Assembly: GCF_053078305.1 (NCBI RefSeq)
Contig: NZ_CP166879.1
Strand: one strand, 5' to 3'
DNA length: 64,000 nt
Shown: positions 371 to 37,215 of the stretch, piece after piece
Position numbering within the stretch: position 1 is the stretch's first letter
Layout: each line of letters begins with the position of its first letter
The notes under the pieces: model-generated
Seen by the model: the letters and a program-made list of their open reading frames with translations, nothing else
Told to the model about the DNA's origin: nothing
Database searches by the model: none
Program-made: the position numbers and the translations under genes

Positions 371-384
371 AACAAGGATTAGTT

Positions 385-2217: not shown

Positions 2218-2548
2218 CCAGAGCATTCCGGCAATTATTATCACAACCCTTAGTGACTGCTCCACCGTCTGGCAAGAGGTCTTACTCGGCATTGAAGAAG
2301 AAGGTATTCCCTTCGTTATCCAGTGCCAGGCAACCGGCGAAGTTATCACCTGTGCCTGGCAAGCGGCGCGTCAGTCGCCTCTTCTGGTCGGTATTGCCTG
2401 CGATCGGGAAACACTGGTGGTGCATTACAAAAATCTACCCACATCAGCGCCACTTTTTACGCTGACGTACCAGCAAGACAGCCACGCACAGCGGAGTATC
2501 GGCAATAACGCAGCAAGACTTGTTAAAGGTATTCCCTTCCGGGAATGA
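2207..2548 (+). CDS. pduH: Diol dehydratase reactivase, small subunit
   Basis: 113-aa ORF overlapping the pduG stop; canonical position and size. Confidence 0.8.
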
Positions 2549-2576
2549 CGCTCATCATCCACAGGAGAACTGTAGT

Positions 2577-2852
2577 ATGAATAATGCACTGGGACTGGTT
2601 GAAACAAAAGGGTTAGTTGGCGCGATTGAAGCCGCAGACGCCATGGTTAAGTCCGCCAATGTACAACTGGTTGGTTATGAAAAAATCGGCTCGGGGCTGG
2701 TGACCGTCATGGTTCGCGGCGACGTCGGTGCTGTTAAAGCCGCCGTTGACGCCGGTAGCGCCGCGGCGAGCGCGGTTGGCGAGGTGAAATCCTGCCATGT
2801 AATTCCGCGTCCGCACAGTGACGTCGAGGCTATTTTACCGCATTCAGCATAA
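2577..2852 (+). CDS. pduJ: Microcompartment shell protein (BMC-H)
   Basis: ATG at 2577 preceded by AGGAGA; [29 protein letters not shown] is a classic BMC domain; the ORF track's TTG start at 2520 is an upstream extension. Confidence 0.85.
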
Positions 2853-2873
2853 AACATTGTACAGGAGCACAGC

Positions 2874-3332
2874 GTGAAGCAATCACTGGGATTACTTGAA
2901 GTAAGTGGTCTGGCATTAGCCATCAGTTGCGCGGATGTCATGGCGAAAGCCGCATCCATCACGCTGATTGGCCTTGAAAAAACCCATGGTTCAGGATGGA
3001 CGGTGATCAAAATCACCGGTGATGTGGCCTCGGTACAGTCTGCCATTATCACCGGTGCCAGTTTTGCCGAACGGCGAAATGGTCTGGTGGCAAATAAAGT
3101 CATCGCCAGACCTGCCGGGGGGATCCTGGCACACGTGGAATCAGACGAACCCGCGAGCGTACCGGAAATCATCATTGAAGAACGGGAAAGATTTATTGAA
3201 ACCCCGGAATCGCAAGATGAGTCAGAAACAGTGCTCGTTAGTTGCAATCTCTGTCTTGACCCGGCCTGTAGACGACAAAAAGGGGAGCCCCATTCACAGT
3301 GCCTGCATTCAGGTAAGCGAGGTGAGAAGTAA
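2874..3332 (+). CDS. pduK: Microcompartment shell protein with Cys-rich C-terminal extension
   Basis: GTG start after AGGAG; N-terminal BMC domain MKQSLGLLEVSGL...; C-terminal CNLCLDPACRR motif. Confidence 0.8.
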   Translation: MKQSLGLLEVSGLALAISCADVMAKAASITLIGLEKTHGSGWTVIKITGDVASVQSAIITGASFAERRNGLVANKVIARPAGGILAHVESDEPASVPEIIIEERERFIETPESQDESETVLVSCNLCLDPACRRQKGEPHSQCLHSGKRGEK

Positions 3333-3964
3333 TGGAAAAACAACTGCTGAAAGACACTGTCAGCAAAGTGTTAGATGAAATGCGCACACGCCCGATTCCT
3401 CTGGGTGTATCTAACCGCCATATTCATCTCTCAGAGGCAGACTACGCACGGCTTTTTCCAGGTCAACCCATTCGTGAGAAAAAGACACTGCTGCAACCCG
3501 GGCAGTTTGCCGCCGAACAAACCGTAACGCTGGTAGGCCCAAAAGGGCAACTGAAAAATGTTCGCCTGCTGGGGCCACTGCGTGAAACCAGTCAGGTAGA
3601 GATATCTCGCACTGATGCCAGAATGTTAGGCATCAGTGCACCGTTACGTATGTCCGGCGATCTGCAGGGCACTCCAGGCATTCGTCTGGTCAGTGCTTTT
3701 GCACAGCTCGACCTTCCTTCTGGGGTCATTGTTGCCCAGCGGCACATTCATATGACTCCCCTTGACGCGCTGGTCTATCGCGTGACTCACGGCGATAAAG
3801 TCTCTGTTGCCATTACTGGCGACGAACGACAGCTTGTTTTAGACAACGTGATTGTGCGTGTATCGGCAGATATGCGGCTCGAGATGCATATTGATACTGA
3901 CGAAGCCAACGCGGCGGGAGCGGATAATCCACAGACTATTGCAATGCTGGTGGCAACACGATGA
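3332..3964 (+). CDS. pduL: Phosphate propanoyltransferase
   Basis: 210 aa; start overlaps pduK stop (TAATG); PduL-type sequence and position. Confidence 0.85.
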   Translation: MEKQLLKDTVSKVLDEMRTRPIPLGVSNRHIHLSEADYARLFPGQPIREKKTLLQPGQFAAEQTVTLVGPKGQLKNVRLLGPLRETSQVEISRTDARMLGISAPLRMSGDLQGTPGIRLVSAFAQLDLPSGVIVAQRHIHMTPLDALVYRVTHGDKVSVAITGDERQLVLDNVIVRVSADMRLEMHIDTDEANAAGADNPQTIAMLVATR

Positions 3965-4443
3965 ACGCAGAACTGTCGCAACACATCGTCGAAAAGGTCG
4001 TCCTCCGGCTACAACAGCGAGCGGTAAGCACAAGAACGCTTAGCCCTACTCAATTGCAGAGAGCCGATCTTCAGGCGCTTTTTTGCCACTATTCAACGTT
4101 GTACGTCACCCCGGTCGATCTGCAGTTTCTGCAGCAAATAATAGAGAACGGATCGGCGGCGGAAAGTATTCACACGGCACTGGCCTGGGGCATCCACGTG
4201 CGACTGTCACTACGACGCAGTTTGTTGCCAGCCATTCCTGTGAAACAACTCGCTCGTCTGCCACTGGAACTCAGCGATGAACATGGACAGCGCATCTTTT
4301 TGCATTCATCCCGATTGTTAAGTTACGTCCATGTAGCCCCCCTGAGCGAAGGGGTACTGGTGCTGAGAAGCAAATGCGTTGTGACCGCGCTGGCACGCGA
4401 AGCCGCAGACGCACGGAATATCCAATTACTTAAGCAGGAGTAG
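3961..4443 (+). CDS. pduM: Microcompartment structural protein
   Basis: 160 aa; ATGA overlap with pduL; position and sequence similarity to PduM. Confidence 0.75.
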   Translation: MNAELSQHIVEKVVLRLQQRAVSTRTLSPTQLQRADLQALFCHYSTLYVTPVDLQFLQQIIENGSAAESIHTALAWGIHVRLSLRRSLLPAIPVKQLARLPLELSDEHGQRIFLHSSRLLSYVHVAPLSEGVLVLRSKCVVTALAREAADARNIQLLKQE

Positions 4444-4446
4444 ACC

Positions 4447-4722
4447 ATGCATCTGGCTCGGGTCACCGGCGCTGTGGTATCCACGCAAAAAACCCCCTCA
4501 TTGGTGGGAAAAAAACTTCTGCTGGTACGTCGGGTCAGCGCCGACGGCGAACTTCCGGCAGATCCATTACACGGCGATGAGGTTGCCGTTGATTCTGTCG
4601 GGGCAGGTGTTGGTGAGCTGGTCTTACTCAGCAGCGGCTCCAGCGCCAGACAGGTATTTTCTGGTCCTAATGAGGCTATCGATCTGGCGGTGGTCGGCAT
4701 TGTCGACACGCTTTCGCGATAA
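4447..4722 (+). CDS. pduN: Microcompartment vertex protein (EutN/CcmL family)
   Basis: 91 aa; [15 protein letters not shown]... typical BMC-V pentamer protein. Confidence 0.8.
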
Positions 4723-4733
4723 GGACATGAGCT

Positions 4734-5741
4734 ATGGCGATTTATACCCGAACAGGCGATACCGGTAGCACATCTCTTTTTACCGGGCAACGCGTCAGTA
4801 AAACCCATCCACGCGTTGAAGCTTACGGTACGCTGGATGAACTCAATGCAGCGCTCAGTTTATGCGTTTGCGCGACCCGTAATGAGCAACACCGGGCGTT
4901 GCTGGAATCTGTTCAGTTACGAATATTCTGGTTTAGCGCCGAACTGGCCAGCGAAGGTGAACAACCTTCTCCAGACCAGTTCTACATTAGCGCTGAGGAT
5001 ATTGCTGCGCTTGAAAGCGCGATCGATACCGCAATGGGACGTATCGCGCCTGTACACAGTTTTATTTTACCAGGCCGCTGCGAGTCCGCCAGTCGGTTAC
5101 ATTTTGCCCGTACCCTTGCCCGCCGTGCCGAACGGCGTCTGGTTGAACTGGCAACAGATGTCACCGTCAGACATGTACTGATGCGCTACATCAACCGCCT
5201 TTCCGATTGCCTGTACGCCCTGGCTCGCGCAGAGGACCATGACACTTACCAGAACAACATTATCAGCGAAGTCGTGAAGCGTTATCTGGCATCCGCAAAT
5301 TCGCCTGTTGTGAAAGGAACCTTGATGACTCTCTCTTTTCACGATCTCCATCAACTGGTCCGTTCCGCCGTGGCCCGTGCTGAAGCGTTAAATGTTCCCG
5401 TTGTAGTCAGCATTGTTGATGCCAACGGTACGGAGTCCGTCACATGGCGGATGCCTGGCGCGCTGCTGGTCAGTAGCGAACTGGCACCAAAGAAAGCCTG
5501 GACAGCTGTTGCCATGAAAACGGCGACCCATGAACTTGCTTCTGCGGTACAACCCGGCGCGCCGCTGTATGGACTGGAAAGCCATATGCAAGGAAAAGTA
5601 ATCACTTTCGGCGGCGGTTATGCCTTATGGCGTGACGGAACAATTATTGGGGGACTGGGTATCAGCGGCGGTAGCGTTGAACAGGACATGGATATTGCAC
5701 AGACCGCCATTGCGGCAATAAACGTGAGAACACATCAATGA
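4734..5741 (+). CDS. pduO: ATP:cob(I)alamin adenosyltransferase (PduO type) with C-terminal GlcG-like domain
   Basis: 335 aa; N-terminus MAIYTRTGDTGSTSLF... Confidence 0.85.
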   Translation: MAIYTRTGDTGSTSLFTGQRVSKTHPRVEAYGTLDELNAALSLCVCATRNEQHRALLESVQLRIFWFSAELASEGEQPSPDQFYISAEDIAALESAIDTAMGRIAPVHSFILPGRCESASRLHFARTLARRAERRLVELATDVTVRHVLMRYINRLSDCLYALARAEDHDTYQNNIISEVVKRYLASANSPVVKGTLMTLSFHDLHQLVRSAVARAEALNVPVVVSIVDANGTESVTWRMPGALLVSSELAPKKAWTAVAMKTATHELASAVQPGAPLYGLESHMQGKVITFGGGYALWRDGTIIGGLGISGGSVEQDMDIAQTAIAAINVRTHQ

Positions 5742-7126
5742 ATACATCTGAACTGGAAACCCTCATTCGTAATATTTTGTGCGAACAACTGGCCCCGGTC
5801 GCCCCAAAAAACATCAGCGGAAACGGTATTTTTCAGTCCGTTGATGAGGCCATCAATGCCGCACACCAGGCATTCTTACGCTATCAGCAGTGCCCACTTA
5901 AAACTCGAAGTGCTATTGTTAACGCCATTCGTCAGGAGTTAACTCCGCATCTGTCTGTCCTGGCGGAAGAGAGTGCCAGCGAAACGGGCATGGGGAACAA
6001 AGAGGATAAATTACTGAAAAACAAGGCTGCACTGGAAAATACCCCCGGCATTGAGGATTTGACAACCACCGCACTTACCGGTGATGGCGGTATGGTTCTG
6101 TTTGAATACTCACCGTTTGGTGTCATTGGTTCCGTTGCGCCGAGCACCAATCCGACGGCAACTATTATTAATAACAGCATCAGTATGCTGGCGGCGGGTA
6201 ACAGCGTCTATTTCAGCCCGCATCCTGGCGCCAAAACTGTATCGCTCAAATTGATCTCCCTAATCGAAGAGATTGTCTTTCGCTGCAGCGGTATTCGTAA
6301 CCTTATTGTCACTGTGACCGAGCCCACATTTGAAGCTACTCAGCAAATGATGGCGCACCCGAAAATCGCCGTGCTGGCGATTACGGGCGGCCCCGGCATT
6401 GTGGCGATGGGGATGAAAAGCGGCAAAAAAGTGATTGGCGCTGGAGCGGGTAATCCCCCCTGTATCGTCGATGAAACGGCAGATCTGATCAAAGCGGCTG
6501 AAGATATCATCAGCGGTGCGTCATTCGATTATAACCTGCCCTGTATTGCGGAAAAGAGTCTGATTGTAGTTGAAAGCGTTGCCGAGCGACTGGTACAGCA
6601 AATGCAAAGTTTCGGTGCATTGCTACTTAATCCATCAGATACCGATAAGCTACGCGCCGTCTGCCTACCGGAAGGGGTAGCCAACAAAAAATTGGTCGGG
6701 AAAAGTCCGTCGGCACTACTGGAAGCCGCGGGGCTGGCAGTTCCGGTAAAAGCACCACGCCTGCTGATTGCCATTGTGAACGCCGACGATTTATGGGTAA
6801 CCTGTGAACAACTTATGCCTGTGTTACCGATCGTGAAGGTCGCTGATTTCGATGCTGCGCTCGCCCTGGCGTTAAAGGTGGAGGAAGGTCTGCACCATAC
6901 AGCCATCATGCACTCGCAAAATGTGTCCCGGCTCAACCTGGCCGCCCGAACGTTACAAACATCCATTTTTGTCAAAAACGGTCCGTCTTACGCCGGGATT
7001 GGCGTTGGCGGCGAAGGGTTTACTACCTTTACCATTGCGACACCCACCGGAGAGGGAACCACGTCAGCCCGTACTTTTGTCCGCTCTCGTCGTTGTGTAC
7101 TGACGAACGGTTTTTCCATCCGTTAA
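5738..7126 (+). CDS. pduP: CoA-acylating propionaldehyde dehydrogenase
   Basis: 462 aa aldehyde dehydrogenase family; ATGA overlap with pduO. Confidence 0.9.
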   Translation: MNTSELETLIRNILCEQLAPVAPKNISGNGIFQSVDEAINAAHQAFLRYQQCPLKTRSAIVNAIRQELTPHLSVLAEESASETGMGNKEDKLLKNKAALENTPGIEDLTTTALTGDGGMVLFEYSPFGVIGSVAPSTNPTATIINNSISMLAAGNSVYFSPHPGAKTVSLKLISLIEEIVFRCSGIRNLIVTVTEPTFEATQQMMAHPKIAVLAITGGPGIVAMGMKSGKKVIGAGAGNPPCIVDETADLIKAAEDIISGASFDYNLPCIAEKSLIVVESVAERLVQQMQSFGALLLNPSDTDKLRAVCLPEGVANKKLVGKSPSALLEAAGLAVPVKAPRLLIAIVNADDLWVTCEQLMPVLPIVKVADFDAALALALKVEEGLHHTAIMHSQNVSRLNLAARTLQTSIFVKNGPSYAGIGVGGEGFTTFTIATPTGEGTTSARTFVRSRRCVLTNGFSIR

Positions 7127-7136
7127 TGAGGCCGCG

Positions 7137-8249
7137 ATGAAGACATTTTCCCTGCAAACCCGTTTATTCAGCGGTCCTGGAAGTCTGAAAATGCTGGACC
7201 GCTTTACGAACAAACATATCTGGATTATCTGTGACGGTTTCCTCTCGCGTTCACCGTTGATTGACACCTTACGTAGTTCGTTACCAGGCAACAATCGCAT
7301 CAGCATTTTTAGCGAGATAACACCGGATCCGACAATCCAAACCGTGGCGCGCGGTATTGCACAGATGCAATCTCTACGTCCTGATGTGGTAATCGGTTTT
7401 GGCGGCGGCTCGGCGCTGGATGCGGCAAAAGCGATTGTCTGGTTCAGTCGCCAGTCTGGCATAGAAATTGAAACCTGTGTTGCCATCCCTACCACCAGCG
7501 GCACAGGCTCAGAAGTTACCAGTGCCTGCGTCATTAGCGATCCAGAGAAAGGTATTAAATACCCTTTATTTAACAATGCGCTATATCCCAACATGGCTAT
7601 TCTCGACCCGACGCTGGTGGTTAGTGTACCGCCGAACATCACCGCTAATACCGGAATGGATGTGCTAACTCACGCGCTGGAAGCATATGTTTCGCCGCAC
7701 GCAAGCGACTTCACTGACGCTCTGGCAGAAAAAGCAGCACAAATCGTCTTCCAGTATTTGTCTGTTGCGGTACAAAAAGGCGATTGTCTGGCGACACGAG
7801 GAAAAATGCATAACGCTTCGACACTCGCCGGCATGGCCTTCAGCCAGGCGGGGCTTGGCCTTAACCATGCTATTGCCCATCAACTCGGTGGACAGTTTCA
7901 CCTGCCGCACGGACTGGCGAACGCACTATTACTCAGTGCAGTCATTCGTTTCAATGCACATGATTCGCGGGCAGCAAAACGCTACGCCCGGTTGGCTAAA
8001 ATTTGCCATCTATGTCCCCCCGACGCTAATGACACAGTCTGTCTGGATGCACTCATCCATCATATTGAAGAACTTAAGAAGTGCTGTGAAATGCCTGGAC
8101 TGTCGGAAGCACTGAAACAGGATAAGCAAAACTGGTCACAACGGATCCCGGCGATGGTTGACGCTGCCCTGGCGGACGTCACCCTGAAAACAAATCCGAG
8201 AATCGCTGATGCCAGCTCCATCCAGGAGTTACTTGAGGAGTTGCTATGA
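7137..8249 (+). CDS. pduQ: 1-propanol dehydrogenase (iron-containing alcohol dehydrogenase)
   Basis: 370 aa; Fe-ADH motifs (GGGSALD, HAIAHQLGG). Confidence 0.9.
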   Translation: MKTFSLQTRLFSGPGSLKMLDRFTNKHIWIICDGFLSRSPLIDTLRSSLPGNNRISIFSEITPDPTIQTVARGIAQMQSLRPDVVIGFGGGSALDAAKAIVWFSRQSGIEIETCVAIPTTSGTGSEVTSACVISDPEKGIKYPLFNNALYPNMAILDPTLVVSVPPNITANTGMDVLTHALEAYVSPHASDFTDALAEKAAQIVFQYLSVAVQKGDCLATRGKMHNASTLAGMAFSQAGLGLNHAIAHQLGGQFHLPHGLANALLLSAVIRFNAHDSRAAKRYARLAKICHLCPPDANDTVCLDALIHHIEELKKCCEMPGLSEALKQDKQNWSQRIPAMVDAALADVTLKTNPRIADASSIQELLEELL

Positions 8250-9601
8250 ATGTCGCGCTGAATGCAGAGACTGCTGATTACGATGCGCAAACCATTCGTG
8301 AGCGAGTGCGTGCAGCCGGTGTGGTCGGTGCCGGAGGCGCTGGTTTCCCGACACATGTCAAACTGCAGGCTCAGGTGGATATTTTTCTGGTCAACGCTGC
8401 AGAATGTGAACCAATGCTAAAAGTTGACCAGCAGTTAATGGCTCTGCAAGCCAGGCGTCTGATTCGCGGAGTACTGTATGGAATGAAAGCAACAGGCGCC
8501 AGTGAAGGCATTATTGCACTGAAAGAAAAATACCAACAAGCAATCGCCGCATTAACGCCATTTCTACCTTCCACTATCAGGCTGCATATATTACCTGACG
8601 TCTACCCGGTGGGCGACGAAGTATTAACTATCTGGATGGCGACGGGTCGTCGTGTGCCTCCTGCCGCGCTTCCTGTCAGCATTGGGGTCGTTGTTAATAA
8701 CGTTCAGACTGTACTTAATATCGCCCGCGCCGTCGAACAGCAGTATGCGGTTACTCGTCGGACGCTGACCATTAATGGCGCGGTAGCAAAGCCAATAACG
8801 CTGACCGTACCGATTGGGATCTCGTTACGTGAAGTGCTGGCGCTGGCGGGAGGCGCTACCGTGGAAGATCCCGGTTTCATTAGCGGTGGCCCGATGATGG
8901 GGGCGTTGATCGGTTCACTGGACAGTCCGGTAACCAAGACTACTGGCGGCCTGTTAGTGTTACCCAAATCTCACCCGCTGATCCAACGACGTCTACAGGA
9001 CGAACGTACCGTACTTACGGTGGCGAAAACTGTCTGTGAGCAGTGCCGATTGTGTACCGATCTCTGTCCGCGTCACTTAATTGGTCACGAATTATCACCT
9101 CACCTGTTGGTACGTACTGTCAATTATCAACAGGTGGCCTCGCCACAACTTTTACTCAGCGCCTTGACCTGTTCAGAATGTAATGTCTGCGCCAGCATAG
9201 CCTGCCCGGTTGGAATCTCACCCATGCGCATTAATCGCATGCTCAAGCGCGAACTGCGTGCGCAAAACCTTCACTATGAAGGACCACTCAAACCGGTCGA
9301 TAAGATGGCGAAATACCGTCTTATCCCGGTGCAGCGACTGATAGCACGCCTGGGCTTATCCCCATGGTATCAGGCAGCACCATTCGATGCAGCCGAACCA
9401 CAACCGGAAAGAGTCACGCTTTTATTGCACCAGCATATCGGTGCAACTACCCTGCCCTGCGTGCAAAAAGGCGAACACGTGGTTCGGGGACAGCGTGTGG
9501 CTGATGTTCAGCAAGGCACGTTAGGCGCGCCCATTCACACCAGTATTGACGGCACGGTCTGTAACGTCACAGAACACTCCATCACGGTGGTAAGAGGTTA
9601 A
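8246..9601 (+). CDS. pduS: Cobalamin reductase (RnfC-like flavoprotein with 4Fe-4S clusters)
   Basis: 451 aa; two CxxCxxCxxxCP ferredoxin motifs; overlaps pduQ stop. Confidence 0.85.
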
Positions 9602-9603
9602 CC

Positions 9604-10158
9604 ATGTCTCAGGCAATAGGTATTTTAGAACTCACCTGTATCGCCAGAGGGATGGAAACTGGCGATGCCATGTTGAAAAGTGCGAATGTCAGTCTACTGG
9701 TCAGTAAGACGATTTGTCCGGGTAAGTTCCTGCTCATTCTGGGCGGTGAGGTCAGTGCAGTCCAGCAGGCAATCGAAACAGGAGCCTCTCTGGCCGGTGA
9801 AATGTTAGTTGACAGTCTGGTGCTACCCAACATCCATGCCAGCATCCTGCCAGCAATCAGCGGGCTGAATAGCGTGGTTCAGCGTCAGTCGGTGGGGATT
9901 GTTGAAACCTGGAGCGTGGCTGCCTGCATCAGCGCTGCAGACCGAGCCATTAAGACATCCAATGTAACGCTGGTCCGCGTCCATATGGCATTCGGCATTG
10001 GCGGTAAATGCTACATGGTGGTCGCAGGGGATATCTCCGACATCAACAATGCGGTTGCTGTTGCCAGCGAAAGTGCAGGTGAGAAAGGTCTCCTGGTTTA
10101 TCGTTCGGTTATTCCACGCCCGCATGAAGCCGTGTGGCACCAGATAGTGGAGGGTTGA
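9604..10158 (+). CDS. pduT: Tandem-domain microcompartment shell protein (BMC-T)
   Basis: 184 aa with two BMC domains. Confidence 0.85.
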
Positions 10159-24770: not shown

Positions 24771-25034
24771 CTATTTGATTTTGCTTAAAATATTATTGAC
24801 TATCGGTATTACAGAACTAACCAATTGCTCTTCCTCAACTGTATACAAAAGCAATTCGATCTCATTCTCCGCATTAAATAACATTGTATGGAGCCACTTT
24901 TCCTCAACAGCAACAATTTGGCTTTCCGCAGCATAAATTTCTGATTGAATACTTTGTACCGTTATTTTCCCTTCAAGAAAGTTTTTACAAGAGTGTTGTA
25001 ACCTCTCGATCACCTCAGGATAAATCCAACTCAT
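24771..25034 (-). CDS. cdiI: CDI immunity protein
   Basis: 87-aa ORF whose ATG overlaps the cdiA stop (ATGA); AGGAG 6 nt upstream. Confidence 0.7.
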
Positions 25035-28000
25035 TGCCCACTCCTGCGAAGAATAGTAACAATAATATTACTGTTATTTTCAGTGACTACACCTACGTCA
25101 CCACTCCAATAAGTCGTTCTAGTTACGCCATTAACGACACTATTTTGAGGAGTTCCTTCTTTGATAACACTTTCAACCATATTCGGCGTTATATTTCTCC
25201 CTGGGCCAACTGTGCCGGCTGGAGAACCTAAACCAGATGGCTGCATTCTATCAACAGCATGTTGTGAATACAAACGATGACCTATTTGTGCATATTGTCG
25301 CCCATCTACTGTAACCTTTCGATAATTTTGCCAAGAGTCCCAAGGTAACTTTTCAGAACTATTAGGTACGTTTTCTGATGAGGTTTTCTCATTACGTTGC
25401 TCTATTGATTCATTATTCCTGGCGTTCTCCTCATCCTGCGGCTCCCATCCCCCCGGTGTTCCAGCATCTGCGCCACCAAGCTCAGCTTTCTCCTTGTCCG
25501 TAGCGCTCGCTACGTCTTTGCCCAGATTCGGCTGTTTGTTTTCGTCTGTATTGTCGCCATTCAGCACATGCCCCGGCCCCCGGGCACCATCGCGACTCGG
25601 ATCACGTACAGCACACTGTTCCCGTGAGCCTTCACAACCACCACCGGTATCCCAGCTATTATCATTCCCGGTATCCTTACTGGCATTACCTGTAGCACCA
25701 GCTATTGCTGCTGCCGTATTAGCTGCTGTTTCAGTGGCTATCACGTTCAGCATATTGTTTTCAGCCGAGTTCCTGCCTGCCTGTGCACCCGTACCGGCAG
25801 ACGTCGTACTGTTGCCGGCAAGCCCGCCCGCAATCCCTGAGGCAATGGTGGCCAGCATGCTGATTTGCTGACGTTCCTGTTCACTCAGGCTATCGGTACG
25901 ACCACCGTAGTAGTTATCAATGATATACCGGGCTGCAAGTTCACCACTGAATGCCCCTGCAGCACCGGAAGCCGCATTGTTTCCACCCAGTTGTGCAGCA
26001 AGCGCTCCCCAGACTGCGTGAGCCATCAGGTTTGCTTCCCGGTTATCGCCGGTGGCCTGTTTTATAAGCTGTGCCACTGCCGGATTCAGACCGCCAGCCA
26101 GTACCTGCCCCGGATTCCCTGCATTCAGTCCGCCCAGCACACCCGTGATGGCCTGTACCACCATCTGCGGCGTACTGCCCGTACCGTAGCCTTTCATGAC
26201 CTCTCTGTATTCCGGGGTCTCCCGCAACTGTGCATCGCTCATGCCAGGATGCTCTTTCCTGGCTGCTTTCATCGCTTCAGTTTCGCCATACGTCATGACG
26301 ATGTTACTCATCTGACCGCTAATCTGGCTGATAACCTGCGCTTCCTGAAGACGCTTCTGCTCTTTCTCCCTGTCAAATATCGGTGCAATGCTGCCGTTGG
26401 CATTTTCCGGGTCCCGGCTGAGCCCGGCAATACCCTGCATCTGACTCTCCTTATTACGGATAATGAGATTTCCGCCGCTGATGGCGGATGACGTGGTACC
26501 TTCAGCATGTCCACTGCTGCCGGACATACCGGTAAGTGCGTTCGCCGCACCGGCTATTGCATTTGAAGCCACCATCTGGCTGGCTGACATCCCTGAGCCA
26601 CCCGATAAACTGATTCCGGTATGGCTGGCTTTATAGTCTGCCTGGTTATGGATATCCGACCAGCCCAGCGTGCCGGTACTGAGGCTGTTTTTGTCATCCG
26701 TTGCCGTGGACGCAATTACCGCACCATTGAGCTGAGTGTGATTCCCCACAGTGACATCAAACCCGTCTTTTCCGGCGTAGATACCACTCTGTTCCCGGAC
26801 AGAATCGTAATTGCTTTTGATTTTGTCCTGACTGATGCTGGCATAGCCGCTGCCGGACATTGAGCCAAACGTGAAGCTGCCACCTGCAGCCACGCTGTTT
26901 TGTCTGCTGTCGTAACGGTCACTGTCCTGAAGACTCGAAATGGTCAGGTTATTACCCACATCCGCTGTGACTTTCTCACCACTGACCTGAGCCCCCGACA
27001 GGGTGGTATCACGTCCGCTTGTGAGGGAGACATTTTTACCCGCATCCAGCGTGGTTTCGGTCCAGGTCGTGCTGCTGCCTTTCTCACTGCCTTTGGAGCC
27101 GTTAATGCTGGCGAAGATACTGAGGCCCCCGCCATTGGTTCCACCACCAAAGCTGACGCCCACGCCGCCACCTTTGCTGCTGTTCTTCCCGGTGGTCTGT
27201 CGGGTGTCAGCGGCGGCAGCCAGCAGAATATCGTTCTGTGCATTCAGACTGGTGTCATTGCCGGACTTAATCTGGCTCCCGGTAATGAGAATATCGCCGC
27301 TGTTGTTATGGTCCTTATTTTTCCCCGTGGCAGTGACGGAGACATTGTTACCGGCGCTGAGGGTTGAGCCGGAGACGATATCGTGCTGATATTTCGTCTC
27401 AGACTTCGACTGCTGATGGTTGAGCGAAATGCTCACGCCGATACCATTATTCTGGTCAGCACTCTGTTGCTGCAGTCCGTGGTTAACACCGGCCTGTACA
27501 CCGGACAGAACCGCCTGTGTTCCTTTCAGTGCCGCCAGACGGCTGTCGCTGGTTTCTTTCGACTCCCGGGCCATGGTTGCAGCATTATTGATGGCACTGC
27601 CCACCGTGCCGGAAAGGGCAACCGTCAGCCCGCTTTTCTTCTGCTCAAATTTTTCGTCCACAGTACGACGGTCATGCCCCGGGTCAACCACCACACTGTC
27701 ACCGGTAATGCTGATATCCCGGTTCGCAATCACATCCGAACCGCTGATATGTACCTGTTTGCCCGCGGTAATACTGACATTACCGGCAGTGGAGCCGATG
27801 GTACTGGCACTCTGACTCTGCGTTGTCCCGGCTTCGCGGCGGTCGTGCGTTGTCTTACTGCTGCCAGTGGTGAAGCCAGTACCGCCGGTACCCGTCAGAC
27901 CGGATTTCTTCGTTTCCTTAAAGCGCCAGGACGTATCTGTACTGGTGGCAGCAAGAACATCAACATGGTTACCTGCCGCCAGTGACACATCCCGGTCAGC

Positions 28001-31000
28001 CACCACATCCGAACCCTGTACCGTCAGGTTATCACCGGCGTTAACGGTCACGCGATTCCCCGACAGCAGAGAGCCCTTCTCACGGGTGACGCTGTCTTCC
28101 GTGATGGTCCGGGTGGTCTGATGGCTGAGGAGACGGTTGCGGGTTTCCCCTGATTCACTGTAGTGATAATCACTTTCCGTGGCAGTACCCAGTACGATGT
28201 CATGACCGGCATTCACACGGATATCGCCCTTTGCCGTTACAGCAGTCGCAACTGAGGTGATATCCCGTCCGGCAGTAACCGTGATGTCACCGCCACTGGT
28301 CATGTCTGTTCCCTGCTGCCGGACCGAATCATGAACCGTCTTCATGCTGAAAGTGCTGTCGTGGTCACCTGCGCCTGTGGACTCCGCAGCCATGTTCACA
28401 TCCCGTCCGGCGCGGATATCCATACTGTTTTCAGCCGTAATACCGGCAGCCTGGCTGTTCACATCACGACCGGCGGAAAGCATCAGACTGTTCCCGGCAG
28501 TGACCGTGGGGGCCACGGCATGAGTTTCATACCACCCGGACCCGCCATAGCGACGACGTTCGCCGGCCTGTATCGCGTTCATGTTCAGGTCATTACCGGC
28601 GGACAGTAACACGCTGTCACCGGCAGAAACGGCGACACCGGTGATACTGATATCCCCGGCTGCGCCCATAAACAGTGAGTCCGTTGCCCTGACAGCAGCC
28701 AGCGGACCGGTATCCGTTCCGCTGAAATGGTTATATCCGTTGTTCATCGCCCACTGTTCTGTACGGGTGAGGTTACTGATGTTTCCGGTGGCGCTTTCCA
28801 GGTATACGGTTTTACCGCTGATGACTGAGCTGATATTGCCGATATCCCCGATGGCCTTCAGGTTCAGTGCACCACCGGCGTTTATCAGTCCGGCATTCAG
28901 GTTGTCGATACTACCTGTGCTGTCGAGCAGGAGGTCATTCTGTGCGTTGATGCTGCCGCCGCTGTTGGTAATATTGCCACCCGCAAGCTGCACGTTGTTC
29001 CCGCTGATAACGCTGCCATTATGAAGGGTGATATCTTCCGGAGACAGATACAGTTTCGGAACCATGACTGTCTGTCCGTTGATGGTGACGGACTCCCACC
29101 ACAGTATGCTTCTGGTCAGTTGTGCAACCTGCCCGGCGGTCAGCGACACACCAAAGGTCAGTCCGAGCGCTTTCTGTTGTGCTGCCGCGCTGTCCATCAG
29201 GTATTTCATCTGCGCCAGGTCAGAGCCTGTGCCGTTGATATAACGTGAGCCCGTCTGGTTCAGTATGACGTTACTGACATACCGGGTATCAAAAGCCGCA
29301 TCCCCCAGAAAGCGGTAATCTTTTTCCGGTTTCAGGCCAAGACGGTCAAGAATGTACGACGAGCCCAGAAACTGTTTTTCATCGGTATATGCCGGGTCTG
29401 TTTCTCGTGGTGCCTGTCCGGGTTGCATCCTGAGCAGGTCATACAGTCCGGCAAACAGACTGCTGTCCACCTTTCCGAGACCATCCAGTTTCGGGTTCAC
29501 CGTAATCAGATACGGACTGTCCGGGGCCGTGGACGGGACAAAATAACCATTGTTACCGGATGGCAGGGGATAGCTGCTTACACTTGCCCCGGACAGCGAC
29601 AGCGCACCCGGGATATCCTTCAGCGTATCCGGCAGCGCGTCATTCCATACAGGGCCGGTTATCCCGGTACCGCTTTCATTCAGCAGGGCTTCACCGCTCC
29701 CCCCCTGACTGACCGTCGGTGGTGTCAGGGAGTTCAGCGAAGGCACCGTTATCGTGTTACCTGCACCACCTGCCCGGGGCATGACAGTGGTATTACCGGT
29801 GTCAGTGGCAAAGCTGGCAGACACATCACCGGCAGCGCTGATAACCGCACGGTACTGACCTGCCGGAGAGGTGCCACTGGCTTCTGTCGCATCCGGCGAG
29901 ACCTGGCGATAGACCCTGTACCATGGCTCAGTAAACCACGCTTTGGGGAGTGAGCCGGAGGCAAGCCGCCAGACCGTTTCCTTTCCGGTGGTTCCCTCCT
30001 GCCAGCCCTGATTGTTCAGTGTGTCGCCACTCAGGGTCATACTGCCACCGGCGAGAATAAACGATGCCTCATTATCCAGTCGTCCTGCACGGATATGCAT
30101 ATCAGCACCGCCGGATATTCTGGCAGCATAGCCGGAGGCACTGACTGTCACCGTATCCGTATCGCCCGTACGGATACGGTATTCATCAGGTACCGTGGCA
30201 CCCTTACCCCAGTACACGGCCAGATATTCCACACCATCATGCCGGACAACACCCCACCACCGGTTATTTTCCGGAACCGGTGAAATCACCCCGTGACTGC
30301 TTCCAGGAATGACCTCATGGCTGGCCGAAATGGCATCCCATGAATTCAGCAGATGCGCCGTATTCATGGTGATATCGCCACGTGTGGTTTCAATATTACC
30401 GGAACGGTTAATGATTTCGCTGTTTGCCGTACCGCTGCTGTCCTTCTGTACCCACAGACTGTTGCCGGCCAGGATATCACCATGCTGGTTATGCAGACGG
30501 TCTGTAAACAGCTTCAGGTTATTCCCCGCATAAATCAGCGCACTGTTCAGCAGGGTACCGGCCACATTCATTGTCAGACTGCCTGCCGTGCCGGTAAAAC
30601 CACTGATGGTGATATCACTCCGGCTGTTCAGACTCACATCGCCACCGGCCTGAAGTGAACCCGGTGCGTTAAGGAAAAGACGCTGTGCGCTGAAAACACT
30701 GTTGTCTTTACCGGCAGTCAGCGTTCCATTGTTGGTGAATGCCTCTCCGGCACTGAGCATCATGGCATCACCCTGCATCACACCGCCGTTGGTGACGGCG
30801 TTCTGCGACGTGACGGAAAGGGTTTTCCCTGCGGCCAGGGTACCATGATTCGTGAGGGCAGCAATCAGTTTCAGTGTGACATCACCGGTGGCCACCACCT
30901 GGCCCTGACCACTGAAGTCCTGAACGTCAAGCAGCAGGTTGCCTGCACTGTACAGCCGCCCTGTACCATTTTGCAGCAGTGAACTGCCCTTGACGCCAAG

Positions 31001-34000
31001 CCATGAGGTTCCCAGCAGGGTACCGCTGTTGCTGAATGTGTGGTAATTCACCAGCAGGTCCGCACCCTGAAGCGTACCGGTATTATTCAGCGTGGTTCCT
31101 TTAACGTCGGCACTGCCGGTGGCAAGTACGCGTCCGCCGTTGACAGTATTCACCACATCCAGCAGCAGGGTGGCAGCCTGTACCAGTCCGCTGCCGGTGT
31201 TCGCCAGCACCTGCGCCGTCAGCGTGAGGTTACTGCCGGAGAGGATTTTGCCGTCGTTCTTCAGACGGTCAGTGGCGTTCAGGGAAACCCCGCCACCACC
31301 CTGTATCGTGCCCTGGTTACTCAGGGTCGCTGTACTGACATTCAGTGCATTCCGGCTCATCAGAACACCACCGGAACGGTTGTTCACGCCACCGGAGGCT
31401 GTCAGCGTCAGCGTTTCGCCCTGCAGATGCCCGCCGTTTGTGAGTTGTCCTGCCGTGATGGTGGTGGCATTTCCCTGTAATTGCCCGTCGTTTGTGACAC
31501 TGTCTGCCTTCAGCGTCAGCACACCTGCACTGAGCAGTTTTCCGCTCGCGTGATTGTTCAGCGTCTGATTCACCGTGAGCGTGAGAGCATCCACACCGGT
31601 GATGTCACCCGCACTGGTCAGTGAGTTCGCCTTCAGTGTCAGATTTTTTGCAATCCATTGTCCGCTGTTGCTTAAATTCAGTGCACTGAGCGCCATTTCA
31701 CCGTTCGAGGTGACTTTGCTGCCTGCTGTGCTGACAAGCTCACCCGTCAGACGTGCAGTCAGGCTGTCAGCCGCCTGGATCGCCCCGCTGTTTGCCAGAC
31801 TGTCTGCGGTGATCAGCACCCGTTTGCCCTGCCAGTATCCGGAACTGGTAATACTGCCTGCGGTGATTGTCAGATCGCCGCTGGTCAGCAATGAACCTCC
31901 GTTATTCATCAGCGCAGGTTGAGGGGATGTCATACGGGCGGCAAGCGTCAGTGTGGCGACCCCGGTGAGCGTGCCACTGTTGGTGACACTGTTCTGACGA
32001 ATCGTGACATGGTTACCCTGGACAGTGCCGCTGTTATCCAGTGAATTTCCATCAAGGGAGAGCGTGCCGACCGAAAGCAGACTGCCCCGGTTGTCAGTGG
32101 TGGCTGCTTTCAGCGTGGTGTCACCCTGGCTCATGATATCGCCGGTACTGGTCAACTGACCGGTTGCCGAAGCAGTAAGGTTACCGGTTGCCAGCACGGA
32201 ACCACTGTTCGCCCATCTGTCCGCCTGCACGGTGAGATTCTGTCCCTGCGTGGTCCCTGCGGTATTCAGTGTTTTACCCCGGAGGGAGAGGTCGCCCGCC
32301 GTCAGCCAGCGTCCGTGACGCCCCTGTGAGAGGGTGTCGCCTGCAAGCGCCAGTGCAGCGGCGCCCTGCAACAGGCCATCGCCATCCAGCGTGGTCGCCC
32401 TGACGTTCAGCGTGTCAGCGGTGATTTTACCCGGATTGCTGAGGGAGGCAGTGTTTAACGTTAAATCATTATCACCGGTGATAAGCCCGCTGTTGCGGAT
32501 GTCCGGTATATCCAGCGTCAGGTCTGCAGCACTGTACAGCGTGCCGTTCTGCTGATTATCAAGCCTCTGTGTGTTAACGGTGAGTGAGGCCTCCCCCTGC
32601 AACAGACCGCTGTTGGTCAGGGTCTGTGACTGTGTATTCAGGGCGGAACCAACAAGTACGCCGCTGCTGGTCAGTTCCGGCGCACTGAGGCTGAGCGACG
32701 GGGCACTGCTTTTCCCGCTGTGGGTGAGCTTTTCACTGGCGTTCAGGGTGAGGATGTCTCTGGCAGCCTGTGTTCCGTCAAGCTGTGCGTTCTGCACATC
32801 CACGCTGACACTGTTGCCCTGCGTCTGCGCAGTGGCCGTGGTCTTCAGACTGTTGCCTTTTACAGACACCGTGCTGCCCGCACTGGTTTCACCCGCCAGC
32901 GTGGAAGACGCGCTGTTCAGCATGAGGTTACCGTCACTGTGCGTGACTGATTTTTCTGTGGTGGTCAGTGTGTCTGCAGAAGCCACAAGTTCCTTTGCCC
33001 CGGAGAGGGTACCGCTGTTGTTTATCTGCGTGGCACTGAGCGTCAGCACGTCATCGCTGACGAGTCTGCCGCGGTTTTCAAGTGTACCGCTGACGGTAAC
33101 GAGGGCTCTGTCTTTTGCTCCGGCATCACCGGACAGTGTGGCATTGCGGGCGCTGATATCGAGTGTGCTACAACTTTTAATACTGCCGGTGCTGGTCAGG
33201 TCAGTGGCGGTGACTTTCAGGCCGTTCCCCTGGACGGCACCGGTATTACTGAATGTCCCGGTTTTCACCGTGGCATCGCGCCCGGCAACCAGTGTCCCGC
33301 CGTTGTTCAGGCTGCCGGAACTGACGGTGAGTGTTTTCCCGGCAACGCTGCGGCCTTTCAGTGTGGTATCATCGGTGGTGGTAAGGGTGACATTTTCAGC
33401 TGCATTCACGTTCCCGGAAGTCTGGTTCAGGTGCTGTGCACTGAGCATGGCGTTCTGTCCGGCAGTCAGTTCACCACCGTTCTGTACAATCTGCCCGGAT
33501 GAAGACAGCACCAGATTTTTATCCGTCACCAGACGGGACTGATTCAGTGTCAGTCCCGTTGTCCCGGTAACGCTGAGATTTCCTCCGGCTTTGTTATCCC
33601 CTGAAAGTGAGACATCCGTTCCGGTTACGGTGGTATTGCCGCCGGCAAGGCTGTTCTTCAGGACCAGTTTTCCGGAACTGCTCAGTATGATATCGCCCTC
33701 GCGGGCATAAAGGTTACCAAGATTAACCCCGACACCACTTTCAGTGGAGGTCAGATGAATACGCCTGGCGTACATTCCACCGAGCGCGCCGGTATCAACA
33801 GCAACTTTCGGCACATCACCTTCGCCCTTCAGGGCACTGACACGACCATCTGCAGTTACCCGGTTAGCGCCTGCAGTGACAGTTAAATCCTTCGCATGAA
33901 GCGCGGCATTCACTTCCGTTGCACGGGCAATAATGGATACGGCATCGCTCCGGGTGCCGTCCAGGCCCGCGCCATTGATGGTGATACTGCCTTCAGTCAC

Positions 34001-34525
34001 CTCCAGCGCCTGCAGGCTGCCGTCGGCATTCATCACAGGTTTGCCTGTGGTGAGCGTCGCGTGCGGCGTGTTGATAAAGCCACAGCCGTCACAGGTGATA
34101 CCATACGGGTTGGCAACCATCACATTCGCCGCTTTGCCGGCCACTTCCGTATAGCCCTGCAGCAGTGAACGCTTACCGCCGGTCACTTCGTTGATGATAC
34201 CCTTCGCTTCCCCGCCCGCTTTCAGGTTCGGGTTATTCTGTATCAGTCCACCAAGCTGCGTCGGATTAAGCTTACCGGTGGCATTATTGAGAATCAGCCC
34301 TTCCTTCCCGACGTTGTAATCCGTAAACCGGTTATGCGAAATCCCGGCCCCGTCCGGCGTGGCAATGTTCACGACCGGCACACCATTTGCCGCTTTATCC
34401 ATTCCGGCCCCGTTTTGTGGGGTGATGACGGCCCCCACAGCCGGTAACAACGGCTGCCCGGCGATAATTGTACTGATAAGGTAACTCAGCAGGCGGTAAG
34501 TGAAGCGAACAGGAGGCTGATGCAT
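25031..34525 (-). CDS. cdiA: Contact-dependent growth inhibition exoprotein CdiA (two-partner secretion, 3164 aa)
   Basis: N-terminal extended signal peptide and TPS domain; long Gly/Asn/Thr/Ser-rich filamentous repeat region; pretoxin region ending GRNSAENN (AENN in place of VENN) followed by a ~230-aa CT. Confidence 0.95.
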
Positions 34526-34537
34526 GGTAATAATCCC

Positions 34538-36310
34538 TTAAAACGCGACGGCAACGCGCCAGTAAACCGTGAGATGGTCAGGGGCAAGCCAGTCCGGGTA
34601 AACAAGAGGCAGTCCGGCGGTGAACGAACCGGAAACATGACCACTGGTGGTGCTGAGCCCGGCAGCAGCACCCCACAGCGTGCCGGACGAGTACGGGTCA
34701 TCGCTGTCAGAGTGCAGCCAGCCGCCGTCCAGTGCAGTCACTGCACGGACTGTCCCCACATATGGCAGGGAGAACAGAGACCAGGACAGCTCATTTCGCA
34801 GATAACCGCCGTTATTACCGGAGATATACTGCTCCTTAAAGCCACGCACTGAACTCTCACCCCCGAGGCTCAGTTGTTCCACACCATGAAGACGGTCCGG
34901 TGACCACTGGGCATAAGCGCTGGTCAGCCACCACACCCTGTCCGTGACGGGGCGCTGAAAACTGGCGCTTAATGACCATTTCCGGAACTGATTTACGGGC
35001 AGGTCTCCCCTTTTCCCGTGGTCGCTTTCTGCGCCGAACCAGGGCATCCCCCGTGTGAATACCGGATTCAGTGTTCCGACACCCCCCAGAAACTTGTGTG
35101 TGTGATTCAGCCCGACAGAAAATGAAGTGAGTTTACGGCTGCTGCCCTGAAGCAGAACATCATCCAGATAATTGTGAATAATGCGGTGCTGCAGACCTCC
35201 GGTCAGTGCTGTCTTCATGTCCCCGTTACGGAACAGGACATGCGACAGTCCCAGCCGGTGAGTCTGCAGGTCTCCCGTGGAACGCCACCGCCAGCCCCGG
35301 TTATCAATGGTGCTGAGGTAGTCACTCCATGAATACGTGTAATCCACCAGGGTATAGCCATACGGCAGACTGACACCGGCGGCAAAATTCCTCGCATCAT
35401 GTGACACCGAAAAGTCACTGCTCCGTCCCCCGCTGACAAACCAGTTGTCAGCCAGCCCCAGCGGATTATTAAAGGAAAGGACACCATTTAACTGCCCCGT
35501 ACCGGTATTCTTCTGTCCGCTGTTGTCGATGCCCACGCTCCCTGTGACAGGCCATCCCGGCGATGCCGTCAGTGTCACCACCGACCATCCCTCACGGTCA
35601 CCGGGCGATATTTCAATCTGTACCGGCTCCGTACGCAGACGGTTAATCTGCTCCATCCCCTGCTCAATATCCCGCAGGTTCAGAACCGCCCCCTCCATTC
35701 CCGGGAAAACCATCTTCAGGGTGCGGGCAGGAAGGTCAGCGCCTTCCGCCCGGATTTGCTGCAGCCTGCCTTCCATGACCGTTATGTGCAGTACGCCCCC
35801 TGAAAGGTCCTGCTCTGTCAGAAAGGCCCGGCTGGTGATATATCCCCGACGTATATAGCCGTCCGTCACGGCATCCGTGACCGTGGTCAGCCCCGTGATA
35901 TTCAGACACTGATTCACCCACGGTGCCACCAGTCTGTCGGTTTCTGCAGACGTCAGTCGGGTGGCCCCACTGACAACAATGCGTGACACCGTAAAGCAGG
36001 GACCTTCAGTACCGGCAGACATTTCCGGAGACGGCGTGATGGTCAGCGGCGCACTGCGCTCCAGCGCATCACGCTGACGCTGGTTTTCATCCAGCAACTG
36101 CTGCTGTTGCTGCTGAATTGCACTGCGGTCACCCGGAGACAGCATGGCTGCCGGAGACGAAAATGCGGGGATAAAAAAACCAGAAAAAACGGAGAGGGAG
36201 AGATAGCATATCCACGGAGAACCGCGCCGGAACATATCACAACAGGGGACAGACAACGCACGGGATAAAAGAGACGTTTTCGTCAGAATGTTGTTCTGCC
36301 GGCGCTGCAT
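34538..36310 (-). CDS. cdiB: Two-partner secretion outer-membrane transporter CdiB
   Basis: 590-aa ORF directly upstream of cdiA; TpsB/FhaC-like beta-barrel C-terminus; alternative start at 36235 gives a conventional signal peptide. Confidence 0.9.
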   Translation of the reverse strand: MQRRQNNILTKTSLLSRALSVPCCDMFRRGSPWICYLSLSVFSGFFIPAFSSPAAMLSPGDRSAIQQQQQQLLDENQRQRDALERSAPLTITPSPEMSAGTEGPCFTVSRIVVSGATRLTSAETDRLVAPWVNQCLNITGLTTVTDAVTDGYIRRGYITSRAFLTEQDLSGGVLHITVMEGRLQQIRAEGADLPARTLKMVFPGMEGAVLNLRDIEQGMEQINRLRTEPVQIEISPGDREGWSVVTLTASPGWPVTGSVGIDNSGQKNTGTGQLNGVLSFNNPLGLADNWFVSGGRSSDFSVSHDARNFAAGVSLPYGYTLVDYTYSWSDYLSTIDNRGWRWRSTGDLQTHRLGLSHVLFRNGDMKTALTGGLQHRIIHNYLDDVLLQGSSRKLTSFSVGLNHTHKFLGGVGTLNPVFTRGMPWFGAESDHGKRGDLPVNQFRKWSLSASFQRPVTDRVWWLTSAYAQWSPDRLHGVEQLSLGGESSVRGFKEQYISGNNGGYLRNELSWSLFSLPYVGTVRAVTALDGGWLHSDSDDPYSSGTLWGAAAGLSTTSGHVSGSFTAGLPLVYPDWLAPDHLTVYWRVAVAF

Positions 36311-36342
36311 GTTCTCCCCGTATTCTGGCCTGTGTGATGCCA

Positions 36343-36418
36343 GTGTAAATTCATGTCAGAAAGTGTCAGCGAGAAAATTTACACCTGAAAAAGTCTGTCA
36401 TGAAACAGTTTTATGACA
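36343..36418 (-). promoter_or_regulatory. Palindromic candidate operator sites upstream of cdiB
   Basis: 9-bp inverted repeat GTGTAAATT ... AATTTACAC (36343-36384) and near-palindrome TGTCATGAAACAGTTTTATGACA (36396-36418), 30-110 bp upstream of the cdiB start. Confidence 0.35.
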
Positions 36419-36825
36419 AGACATCAAAAAAATGTCAAAAACGTGATCTTTCTTCAGCTTTTCAGAATATTGAGTACCAGGAGTTCAATATCAATTCTGG
36501 GACACATATGCATTTACCATTAAAACCGGGCACAACAAGCTGTTCAGTCTCAATCCATACCCCGTGTTTTATCAATATCAGAATAAGAATATCTGCGGAT
36601 AAATAAAAAAGGAATGTCGAGGGAGCTTACCGCAGAGGGCTCTCCACCTCACAAGCCATTTACAAAAATGATACCGGCATATCTTTGGTCCCTGTCACAA
36701 CCAGACATTGACAATCCAATATAACCCCAAATATATTTCGGGTAAGAAGTCTGGGATTTATACAGATATACTGTCTGTTATTACTATTTAATTATATAAT
36801 TGTATTACATACATAAGAGGCACTA

Positions 36826-37215
36826 ATGAAACGTTATATAAAATGGTTTGCCATCACAATTTTTATCAGTATGTTGAGTGCCTGTGCCCGTACGGCCCCA
36901 GTGCAACAGATAAGCACCACTGTCAGTGTGGGTCATACTCAGGAGCAGGTTAAAAATGCCATTTTGAAAGCAGGTGCGCAGCGCAAGTGGATTATGACGC
37001 AAGTGTCCCCTGGAGTTATTAAAGCTCGCTATCAAACACGAAATCACGTTGCAGAGGTTCGTATTACATATACAGCTACCTACTATAACATCAAATATGA
37101 CAGTAGCCTGAATCTGCAGGCTTCTGATGGAAAAATTCATAAAAACTATAACCGCTGGGTGCGTAACCTGGATAAAGATATACAGGTTAACTTATCTACA
37201 GGAGCAACGTTATAG
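36826..37215 (+). CDS. Lipoprotein (lipobox LSAC), function unknown
   Basis: 129 aa; N-terminus MKRYIKWFAITIFISMLSAC; divergent from cdiB, upstream of the aryl-polyene cluster. Confidence 0.6.
   Translation: MKRYIKWFAITIFISMLSACARTAPVQQISTTVSVGHTQEQVKNAILKAGAQRKWIMTQVSPGVIKARYQTRNHVAEVRITYTATYYNIKYDSSLNLQASDGKIHKNYNRWVRNLDKDIQVNLSTGATL

Follow-up and report, generated by a model that had tools for sequence, protein, structure and literature searches.

The intergenic DNA upstream of cdiB contains, in addition to the two palindromes described in a first-pass annotation of this region, a conserved array of short direct repeats that appears to be a better candidate control element for the cdiBAI genes than either palindrome. 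In the 64,000-nucleotide stretch of DNA that was analysed (referred to here as the window), three pentamers in exact 10-bp phase (36345-36369, plus strand) overlie a weak candidate sigma-70 promoter of cdiB, and judged from sequence we regard this array as a lead and not as a finding. The two dyad symmetries are real strings, but they are unsupported as operators. The best mechanistic guess, which is held tentatively and falls somewhat short of being probable, is that a weak sigma-70 promoter is overlain here by a tandem site of the CpxR/OmpR type, possibly in combination with silencing by H-NS.

The interval under study (36311-36825, 515 bp) is located between cdiB, which is on the minus strand, and apeA, with which an aryl-polyene biosynthetic cluster begins. 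It is 100% identical to the corresponding DNA of E. coli H22 (NZ_CP120563.1) and is found in full length in about 240 other E. coli genomes. The interval of Nissle 1917 is 99.2% identical, and the same degree of identity has been retained in CFT073 (L002 5800-6000), although only about 200 bp of cdiB are left there, joined to a remnant of cdiA. The flanking genes had been correctly identified in the first-pass annotation as cdiB and a lipoprotein gene. The former (34538-36310, minus strand), based upon the open reading frame list, matches to the Pfam families ShlB, POTRA_2 and POTRA_3 and the RefSeq annotation of H22, encodes a two-partner-secretion outer-membrane transporter of 590 aa, and it is followed by cdiA (25031-34525, minus strand). 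The latter (apeA, 36826-37215, plus strand) encodes a small lipoprotein of 129 aa with an LSAC lipobox, a homologue of c1204, which is the first gene of the aryl-polyene cluster (PMC8253772 Table 1). To the right of apeA are genes for a methyltransferase, a chain-length factor, an acyltransferase, acyl carrier proteins and the remainder of this cluster, which is complete and extends from 36826 to about 58000 (apeA-R homologues of CFT073 c1204-c1186); it almost always adjoins cdiB or a cdiB remnant in E. coli genomes. The GC content of the interval is 34-42%, versus 58-61% in cdiB. An open reading frame of 68 aa within it (36400-36606, plus strand) is without a Pfam match and is annotated only sporadically, as a "hypothetical protein" in the RefSeq records of 89-3156 and OkiPb01677, and it is probably spurious. 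Downstream of cdiA, the segment 23009-25058 contains a small open reading frame overlapping the cdiA stop (likely cdiI), an orphan fragment that is frameshifted and carries a VENN pre-toxin motif, another small open reading frame and an IS200C transposase, and it looks like an orphan toxin/immunity array. A phosphoglycerate transport and two-component cluster (pgtP / pgtC-pgtB-pgtA, 3822-10045) is present on the same island.

Of the two palindromes, dyad 1 (36343-36384) has perfect 9-bp arms, GTGTAAATT (36343-36351) and AATTTACAC (36376-36384), which are separated by 24 nt. The arms of dyad 2 (36396-36418), TGTCATGAAAC (36396-36406) and GTTTTATGACA (36408-36418), agree at 10 of 11 positions, with a single A between them. 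The two dyads lie 33-74 bp and 86-108 bp, respectively, upstream of the cdiB ATG at 36310, in agreement with the 30-110 bp originally reported. Although these two dyad symmetries exist at the coordinates described, the adjective "strong" that had been applied to them is not borne out statistically. When the 515-bp interval was shuffled 1000 times with its dinucleotides preserved, a dyad of the first class (perfect arm of at least 9 bp, gap of at most 30 nt) arose in 6.9% of cases and one of the second class (arm of 11 bp or more containing one mismatch) in 11.3%, and neither dyad exceeds chance. A motif search for the same dyads elsewhere, which had been suggested along with them, was carried out on the 64-kb window and revealed no second copy of either; the arm GTGTAAATT by itself had one extra match, at 60742, which is unrelated. 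No cognate regulator gene adjoins the locus among the neighbouring genes that were examined. The half-sites of dyad 1 are 33 bp apart and this dyad is thus ill-suited to a simple dimer; the 1-nt gap of dyad 2 is a spacing that would suit one.

To which of the two divergent genes these sequences belong was determined from homology classes of the interval, based upon megablast matches. Matches to the full interval always adjoin the aryl-polyene cluster. Those limited to positions 1-73, 1-79 or 1-81 of the interval represent cdiB genes at other chromosomal sites and on IncF plasmids, including pCP127 of strain EC93, and in the EC93-type plasmids dyad 1 is present with no aryl-polyene cluster nearby. 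A match to positions 1-138, which carries both dyads, is found in SCEC020022, where cdiB adjoins a dGTPase gene. Lastly, matches to positions 82-515 and 330-515 come from strains in which IS66 or IS1 is inserted upstream of an intact aryl-polyene cluster. Based upon these classes, both dyads travel with cdiB and not with apeA. Since several classes end at 36383-36391, a mobile-element end or island boundary at this place was considered, but it was rejected, as the ends reflect divergence between allele types together with insertion sequences, no terminal repeat is present, and the EC93-type and H22-type alleles are still weakly alignable to about 36460. In different strains, insertions of IS66, IS3, IS1 and ISVsa5 are seen at about 36392, 36398, 36640 and 36717 (loci L005, L095, L006 and L011), and insertion sequences appear to enter this intergenic region frequently. 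In SCEC020022, a cdiB gene whose cdiA is replaced by an IS66 remnant also adjoins pgtP.

A block of about 85 bp (36311-36395, minus strand), which holds dyad 1, is conserved upstream of every E. coli-type cdiB in any genomic context, and its 52-nt core is present at 520 places in 407 of 5426 E. coli genomes, plasmids included. The fate of the palindromes within and beyond this block was followed in an alignment of 12 cdiB upstream regions from different contexts. In dyad 1, seven of the nine pairs are invariant and compensatory changes are lacking; a single pair no longer matches in the CI5 and M8 plasmids, the terminal pair has become G/T in EC93-type alleles with loss of symmetry, and the arm spacing, which is 24 nt in most alleles, is 26 nt in pSCU-152-1 as a result of indels. 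Its 12 TGTAAA/TTTACA columns are all invariant (about 0.12 by chance, on a rough estimate), which is unremarkable because the whole block is conserved. Dyad 2 is paired in 63% of cells of the alignment and is absent in 7-8 of the 12 alleles. It is present only in the lineage adjoining the aryl-polyene cluster, the corresponding block occurring in 252 genomes and in chromosomes only; it has one match fewer in the 89-3156 lineage, SCEC020022 has a degraded form of it, and EC93-type loci lack it. Across orthologous loci, neither dyad has its symmetry kept or changed jointly.

The best sigma-70 candidate for cdiB (36342-36369, minus strand), which we will refer to as P1, was identified by both consensus and weight-matrix scans. 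It is comprised of a -35 element CTGACA (36369-36364), a spacer of 16 nt and a -10 element TACACT (36347-36342), with 9 of 12 consensus matches and 9.9 bits, the top minus-strand score in the weight-matrix scan. This score is close to the median best score of random 651-nt windows, so that P1 must be considered weak, and its assignment could be wrong. From its predicted start at about 36335, a leader of about 25 nt would extend to the cdiB ATG and end in a Shine-Dalgarno sequence, GGGGAG (36314-36319, minus strand), which was read from the sequence, is located 4-9 nt upstream of the ATG and is invariant in the 12-allele alignment. Across these alleles the -10 element is invariant, the -35 element varies at its sixth position only and the spacer is 16, 17 or 18 nt, while the most variable 6 nt of the block are found just upstream of the -35. 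This pattern of allelic variation fits the predicted P1 as a promoter. The left arm of dyad 1 overlaps the P1 -10 and its right arm falls at about -41 to -50. Dyad 2 overlaps two weak upstream candidates, TTGTCA-16-CAGACT and TTGACA-17-CATAAA, with predicted starts at about 36403 and 36385, which are present only in the H22 lineage that carries this dyad. In the literature we found no defined promoter, start site or regulator for E. coli cdiB, and the sole promoter analysis encountered was the BPROM prediction in the EC93 genome paper, where it is also noted that most chromosomal cdi loci remain unexpressed under laboratory conditions. Chromosomal cdi loci have been reported to be silent in laboratory media and tightly regulated (PMC8190604), and the weakness of P1 fits this reported silence.

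The pentamers that overlie P1 are GTAAA at 36345, GTCAG at 36355 and GTCAG at 36365 on the plus strand, with TTCAT and AAAGT between them (general form GTAAA-N5-GTCAR-N5-GTCAG). On the cdiB strand they read CTGAC-N5-CTGAC-N5-TTTAC and span the -10, spacer and -35 of P1, and five TGTCA/TGACA words are present in this promoter stretch. A CpxR matrix was built from 41 published sites (PMC9600279 Table S1), for which the median score is 13.4 bits (12.4 leave-one-out). The array scores 13.5 bits by this matrix in the majority allele and 12.0 bits in H22. The latter value ranks seventh among about 128,000 window positions, although seven matches in 128,000 are only modest evidence, since some ten factor motifs were considered after the sequence had been seen. 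A second, overlapping match of 11.0-11.5 bits is present 10 bp away in 9 of the 11 other alleles, and the array agrees with the degP2 site at 12 of 15 positions. The arrangement is that of a CpxR box, viz. GTAAA-like direct repeats of 10-11-bp period with a score within the known range. Boxes 1 and 2 together with their spacing are invariant in the 12 alleles, whereas the spacing between boxes 2 and 3 shifts by 1-2 nt in two of them. The G at 36359 is private to H22, the other aligned alleles having A (box 2 GTCAA), and a 52-nt query containing this G is matched at 99% or above only in H22 itself; the substitution converts a perfect TTGACA to CTGACA on the cdiB strand and reduces the score by the CpxR matrix from 13.5 bits to 12.0 bits. 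The sequence does not distinguish among CpxR, OmpR and related regulators, and a literature search revealed no account of binding by CpxR or another regulator, or of regulator-dependent expression, for cdiB.

The upstream regions of cdiB genes in other genera provide a separate view of this array. In species-representative genomes the CdiB relatives are at most 68% identical to the E. coli protein, and their upstream regions are therefore independent of the E. coli block. When these regions were grouped into 51 independent clusters, 11 of them scored at least 12 bits by the CpxR matrix in the same orientation, while dinucleotide shuffling gave an expectation of 1.5 (mean; maximum 6 in 300 sets); a control based upon real intergenic DNA yielded 10 usable stretches, a number too small to be informative. 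In Enterobacter, Lelliottia and Leclercia (L015, L017, L020, L023, L031 and L032), about 60-110 nt upstream of cdiB, the sequence TTTAC-5 nt-TTTAC-4 nt-TTTAC is followed by TTTTTGACATAAGTTGC; GTTAC replaces TTTAC in one sequence, the boxes being otherwise invariant, and the variable spacers are of 4-5 nt. The 12-mer ACTTTTTGACAT is common to the E. coli majority allele and the cdiB promoters of this group. In Pantoea and Erwinia, two invariant TTACA boxes are located 11 bp apart. In Citrobacter and Trabulsiella, what is conserved is plainly a TTTACA-N17-TATTTT promoter, without conservation of the second box. Because the pentamers on the cdiB strand (TTTAC, TTGAC and CTGAC) are themselves -35-like words, both the CpxR-matrix signal and its enrichment across genera may in part reflect promoters. 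The broader proposition that cdiBAI across the Enterobacterales is under direct control of an OmpR-family regulator (CpxR or OmpR), by means of conserved tandem TTTAC/GTAAA boxes at the core promoter, is put forward as a rather doubtful one.

On the other side of the interval, apeA and the aryl-polyene cluster have a strong sigma-70 candidate of their own, TTGACA-18-TATATT (36708-36737, plus strand), which matches the consensus at 11 of 12 positions. It is located 89 bp upstream of apeA, with a predicted start at about 36744, and at 13.6 bits it scores as high as the best site in any of 200 randomly sampled 651-nt windows. Sharing of the palindromes with the divergently transcribed lipoprotein gene, as had been envisaged, is unlikely, since the dyads are part of the cdi module, are more than 290 bp away from this promoter and in some strains are separated from an intact aryl-polyene cluster by insertion sequences. 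The regulators of the aryl-polyene cluster have been reported as unknown (bioRxiv 10.64898/2026.01.21.700819). The sequence ACATCAAAAAAATGTCAA (36421-36438, plus strand), about 390 bp upstream of apeA and pointing to it, scores 14.2 bits with a PhoB matrix, ranking second in the window. This match points away from cdiB and is part of the block that is limited to the lineage adjoining the aryl-polyene cluster.

Several other regulators were considered for the cdiB side and rejected. Scores of the PhoB matrix were compared with those of 43 ChIP-chip sites, and a possible Pho box at dyad 2 on the minus strand (TTGTCATAAAACTGTTTC) reached 10.5 bits, which is below their lower quartile of 12.5 bits. 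For a CRP site (TGTGA-N6-TCACA), the interval contains only the half-site-like words TGTGA and CGTGA. In ETEC H10407, the locus of which, at NC_017633.1 3425261-3425775, is 99% identical, no CRP ChIP-seq peak near 3425xxx is listed in Table 1 or the supplements of the corresponding study, and the main text of the H10407 ChIP-seq paper lists no MarA peak near this position. Sites for LexA, FNR, Fur, GalR/LacI-type regulators, sigma-E and sigma-54 fitted poorly when compared by eye with consensus sequences, and a TyrR box, judged in the same manner, had the right half-sites at the wrong spacing. Dam-dependent phase variation is unlikely, as the only GATC is at 36444.

These observations bear upon three other explanations. 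In the first-pass annotation, the palindromes had been considered plausible repressor or activator sites, so that one or both would form an inverted-repeat operator for a dimeric or tetrameric regulator of cdiB and perhaps of apeA. The regulatory location that this implies has held up, as both dyads lie 33-108 bp upstream of cdiB and dyad 1, situated in the conserved block, brackets the best core promoter; dyad 2 also has a classical geometry (11-bp arms, 1-nt centre), the TGTAAA and TTTACA cores are invariant, the combination TGTAAA-N20-40-TTTACA is rare in the window (0.04 expected), and the chromosomal cdi loci are reportedly tightly regulated. However, it is the symmetry itself that is not conserved: the dyads are within chance, lack compensatory changes and lose their symmetry in several alleles, the widely separated half-sites of dyad 1 are not at a fixed spacing, dyad 2 decays within its own lineage, and neither further copies in the window nor an adjoining cognate regulator gene support such an operator, which for apeA would additionally have to act over more than 290 bp and across a stretch that insertion sequences can divide. 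Hence, a palindromic operator at this locus is considered unlikely. Even less is to be said for a role in RNA, in which a longer cdiB leader, with transcription from an upstream promoter near 36403-36385, would form a hairpin that modulates translation or stability. The two lineage-specific upstream candidates could supply such a transcript, and the 98-nt putative long leader has a predicted folding energy of -20.1 kcal/mol (z-score -1.86). However, 8 of 200 shuffles fold as well, the minimum-energy fold pairs 36350-36360 with 36393-36404 and not the arms of dyad 1, and the upstream arm of this alternative pairing is not conserved in EC93-type alleles. Further, little stability would be expected of a 9-bp A/U-rich stem closing a 24-nt loop, no covariation was seen, and a search of Rfam gave two eukaryotic matches only, both at chance level (E-values 2 and 7.6). 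The RNA element was rejected on these grounds, and it seems highly improbable.

The main rival to a tandem regulator site is that there is no dedicated operator of any kind, the conserved block being core promoter and leader only, with promoter weakness and generic H-NS silencing accounting for the expression pattern and with both the dyads and the array being coincidental. TTTACA, TTGACA and CTGACA are overlapping -35-like hexamers of a kind common in AT-rich acquired DNA, and the GC content of the interval is indeed well below that of cdiB. On the cdiB strand the pentamers are -35 cores, two of the three having a -10 partner at 16 nt (TACACT and CAGAAT). The conserved footprint of the Citrobacter group is purely that of a promoter, and the absence of CRP peaks (Table 1 and supplements) and of MarA peaks (main text) near the H10407 locus is in keeping with this explanation. 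However, the TTGACA of box 2 in the majority allele is without a usable -10 at 16-18 nt, the exact 10-bp phasing and the near-invariant boxes with variable spacers in the Enterobacter group exceed what a single promoter needs, and the enrichment across genera (11 clusters observed versus 1.5 expected) is unaccounted for. We therefore regard the absence of a dedicated operator as possible, though on the unlikely side.

Under the preferred reading, that of a weak promoter with an overlying tandem site, the segment 36311-36395 would be the ordinary promoter and 5' leader of cdiBAI, which has accompanied cdiB to each location reached by the cdi module. Transcription of cdiB would most likely proceed from the weak CTGACA-16-TACACT promoter and start about 25 nt upstream of the ATG. 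Dyad 1 may then be a by-product of two conserved A/T-rich words, the TACAC in the -10 element and TTTACA at about -45, and dyad 2 would be a decaying, lineage-specific palindrome. The pentamer array would serve as a tandem site for a response regulator of the OmpR/PhoB family, CpxR being the best match, and we infer that a regulator bound to it could block RNA polymerase and shut off the production of CdiB and CdiA under envelope stress. The composition of this AT-rich, horizontally acquired intergenic DNA suggests that it is perhaps also silenced by H-NS. Nothing in this scheme would be shared with apeA, whose own strong promoter lies about 300 bp away. If correct, control by an OmpR-family regulator would explain the silence of chromosomal CDI in laboratory culture and would tie the deployment of the toxin to the status of the envelope, the rationale being that a protein of 3000 residues is not exported through an envelope under stress. 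If the array is a genuine site of the CpxR/OmpR type, it would also offer a cheap and concrete handle by which CDI could be switched on or off. The palindromes, being at chance level and not conserved as palindromes, add little to this.

Compared with known systems, dyad 2 shares the typical 23-bp palindrome geometry of LacI/GalR, TetR and TyrR operators. The TyrR box is TGTAAA-N6-TTTACA, and dyad 1 has the same half-sites, but with N30 between the hexamers in place of N6. Both dyads differ from classical operators in that their symmetry is not maintained across alleles and in the lack of regulon copies in the 64-kb window and of an adjoining regulator. In the cdiBAI locus of EC93, the first 85 bp or so upstream of the pCP127 cdiB represent the same block, with dyad 1 present at 8 of 9 positions, whereas beyond about -85 the sequence diverges and dyad 2 is missing. 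The EC93 cdi-1 locus, unlike most chromosomal loci, is expressed in laboratory media (PMC8190604), the aligned pCP127 copy being either cdi-1 or cdi-2.

The tandem sites of OmpR at the porin genes (F1-F3 of ompF and C1-C3 of ompC) consist of 10-bp units that carry xTTACA on the sense strand and adjoin or overlap the -35 element. The likeness to these is clearest in the cdiB genes of the Enterobacter group, where three TTTAC boxes are followed by TTGACA; the E. coli cdiB boxes differ in that they overlap the -10 and -35 elements and are not upstream of them. With respect to CpxR, two of the three pentamers seen here are of the variant form GTCAR, which on the opposite strand can also be read as a -35 core, the 41 known sites (PMC9600279 Table S1) do not include cdiBAI, and none of the papers that were found describes CpxR control of it. 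The likeness to CpxR-repressed promoters with a GTAAA-N5-GTAAA box (degP, cpxP, csgD, motA and ompF) consists of the tandem pentamers, their 10-bp period and a score near the median of the known sites. As the array overlies the -10, spacer and -35, a CpxR-type site in this position would be expected to repress. In H. ducreyi, CpxRA controls the two-partner-secretion operon lspB-lspA2 (PMC5422565 Table 2), and cdiBAI resembles this operon in being also a large outer-membrane secretion system.
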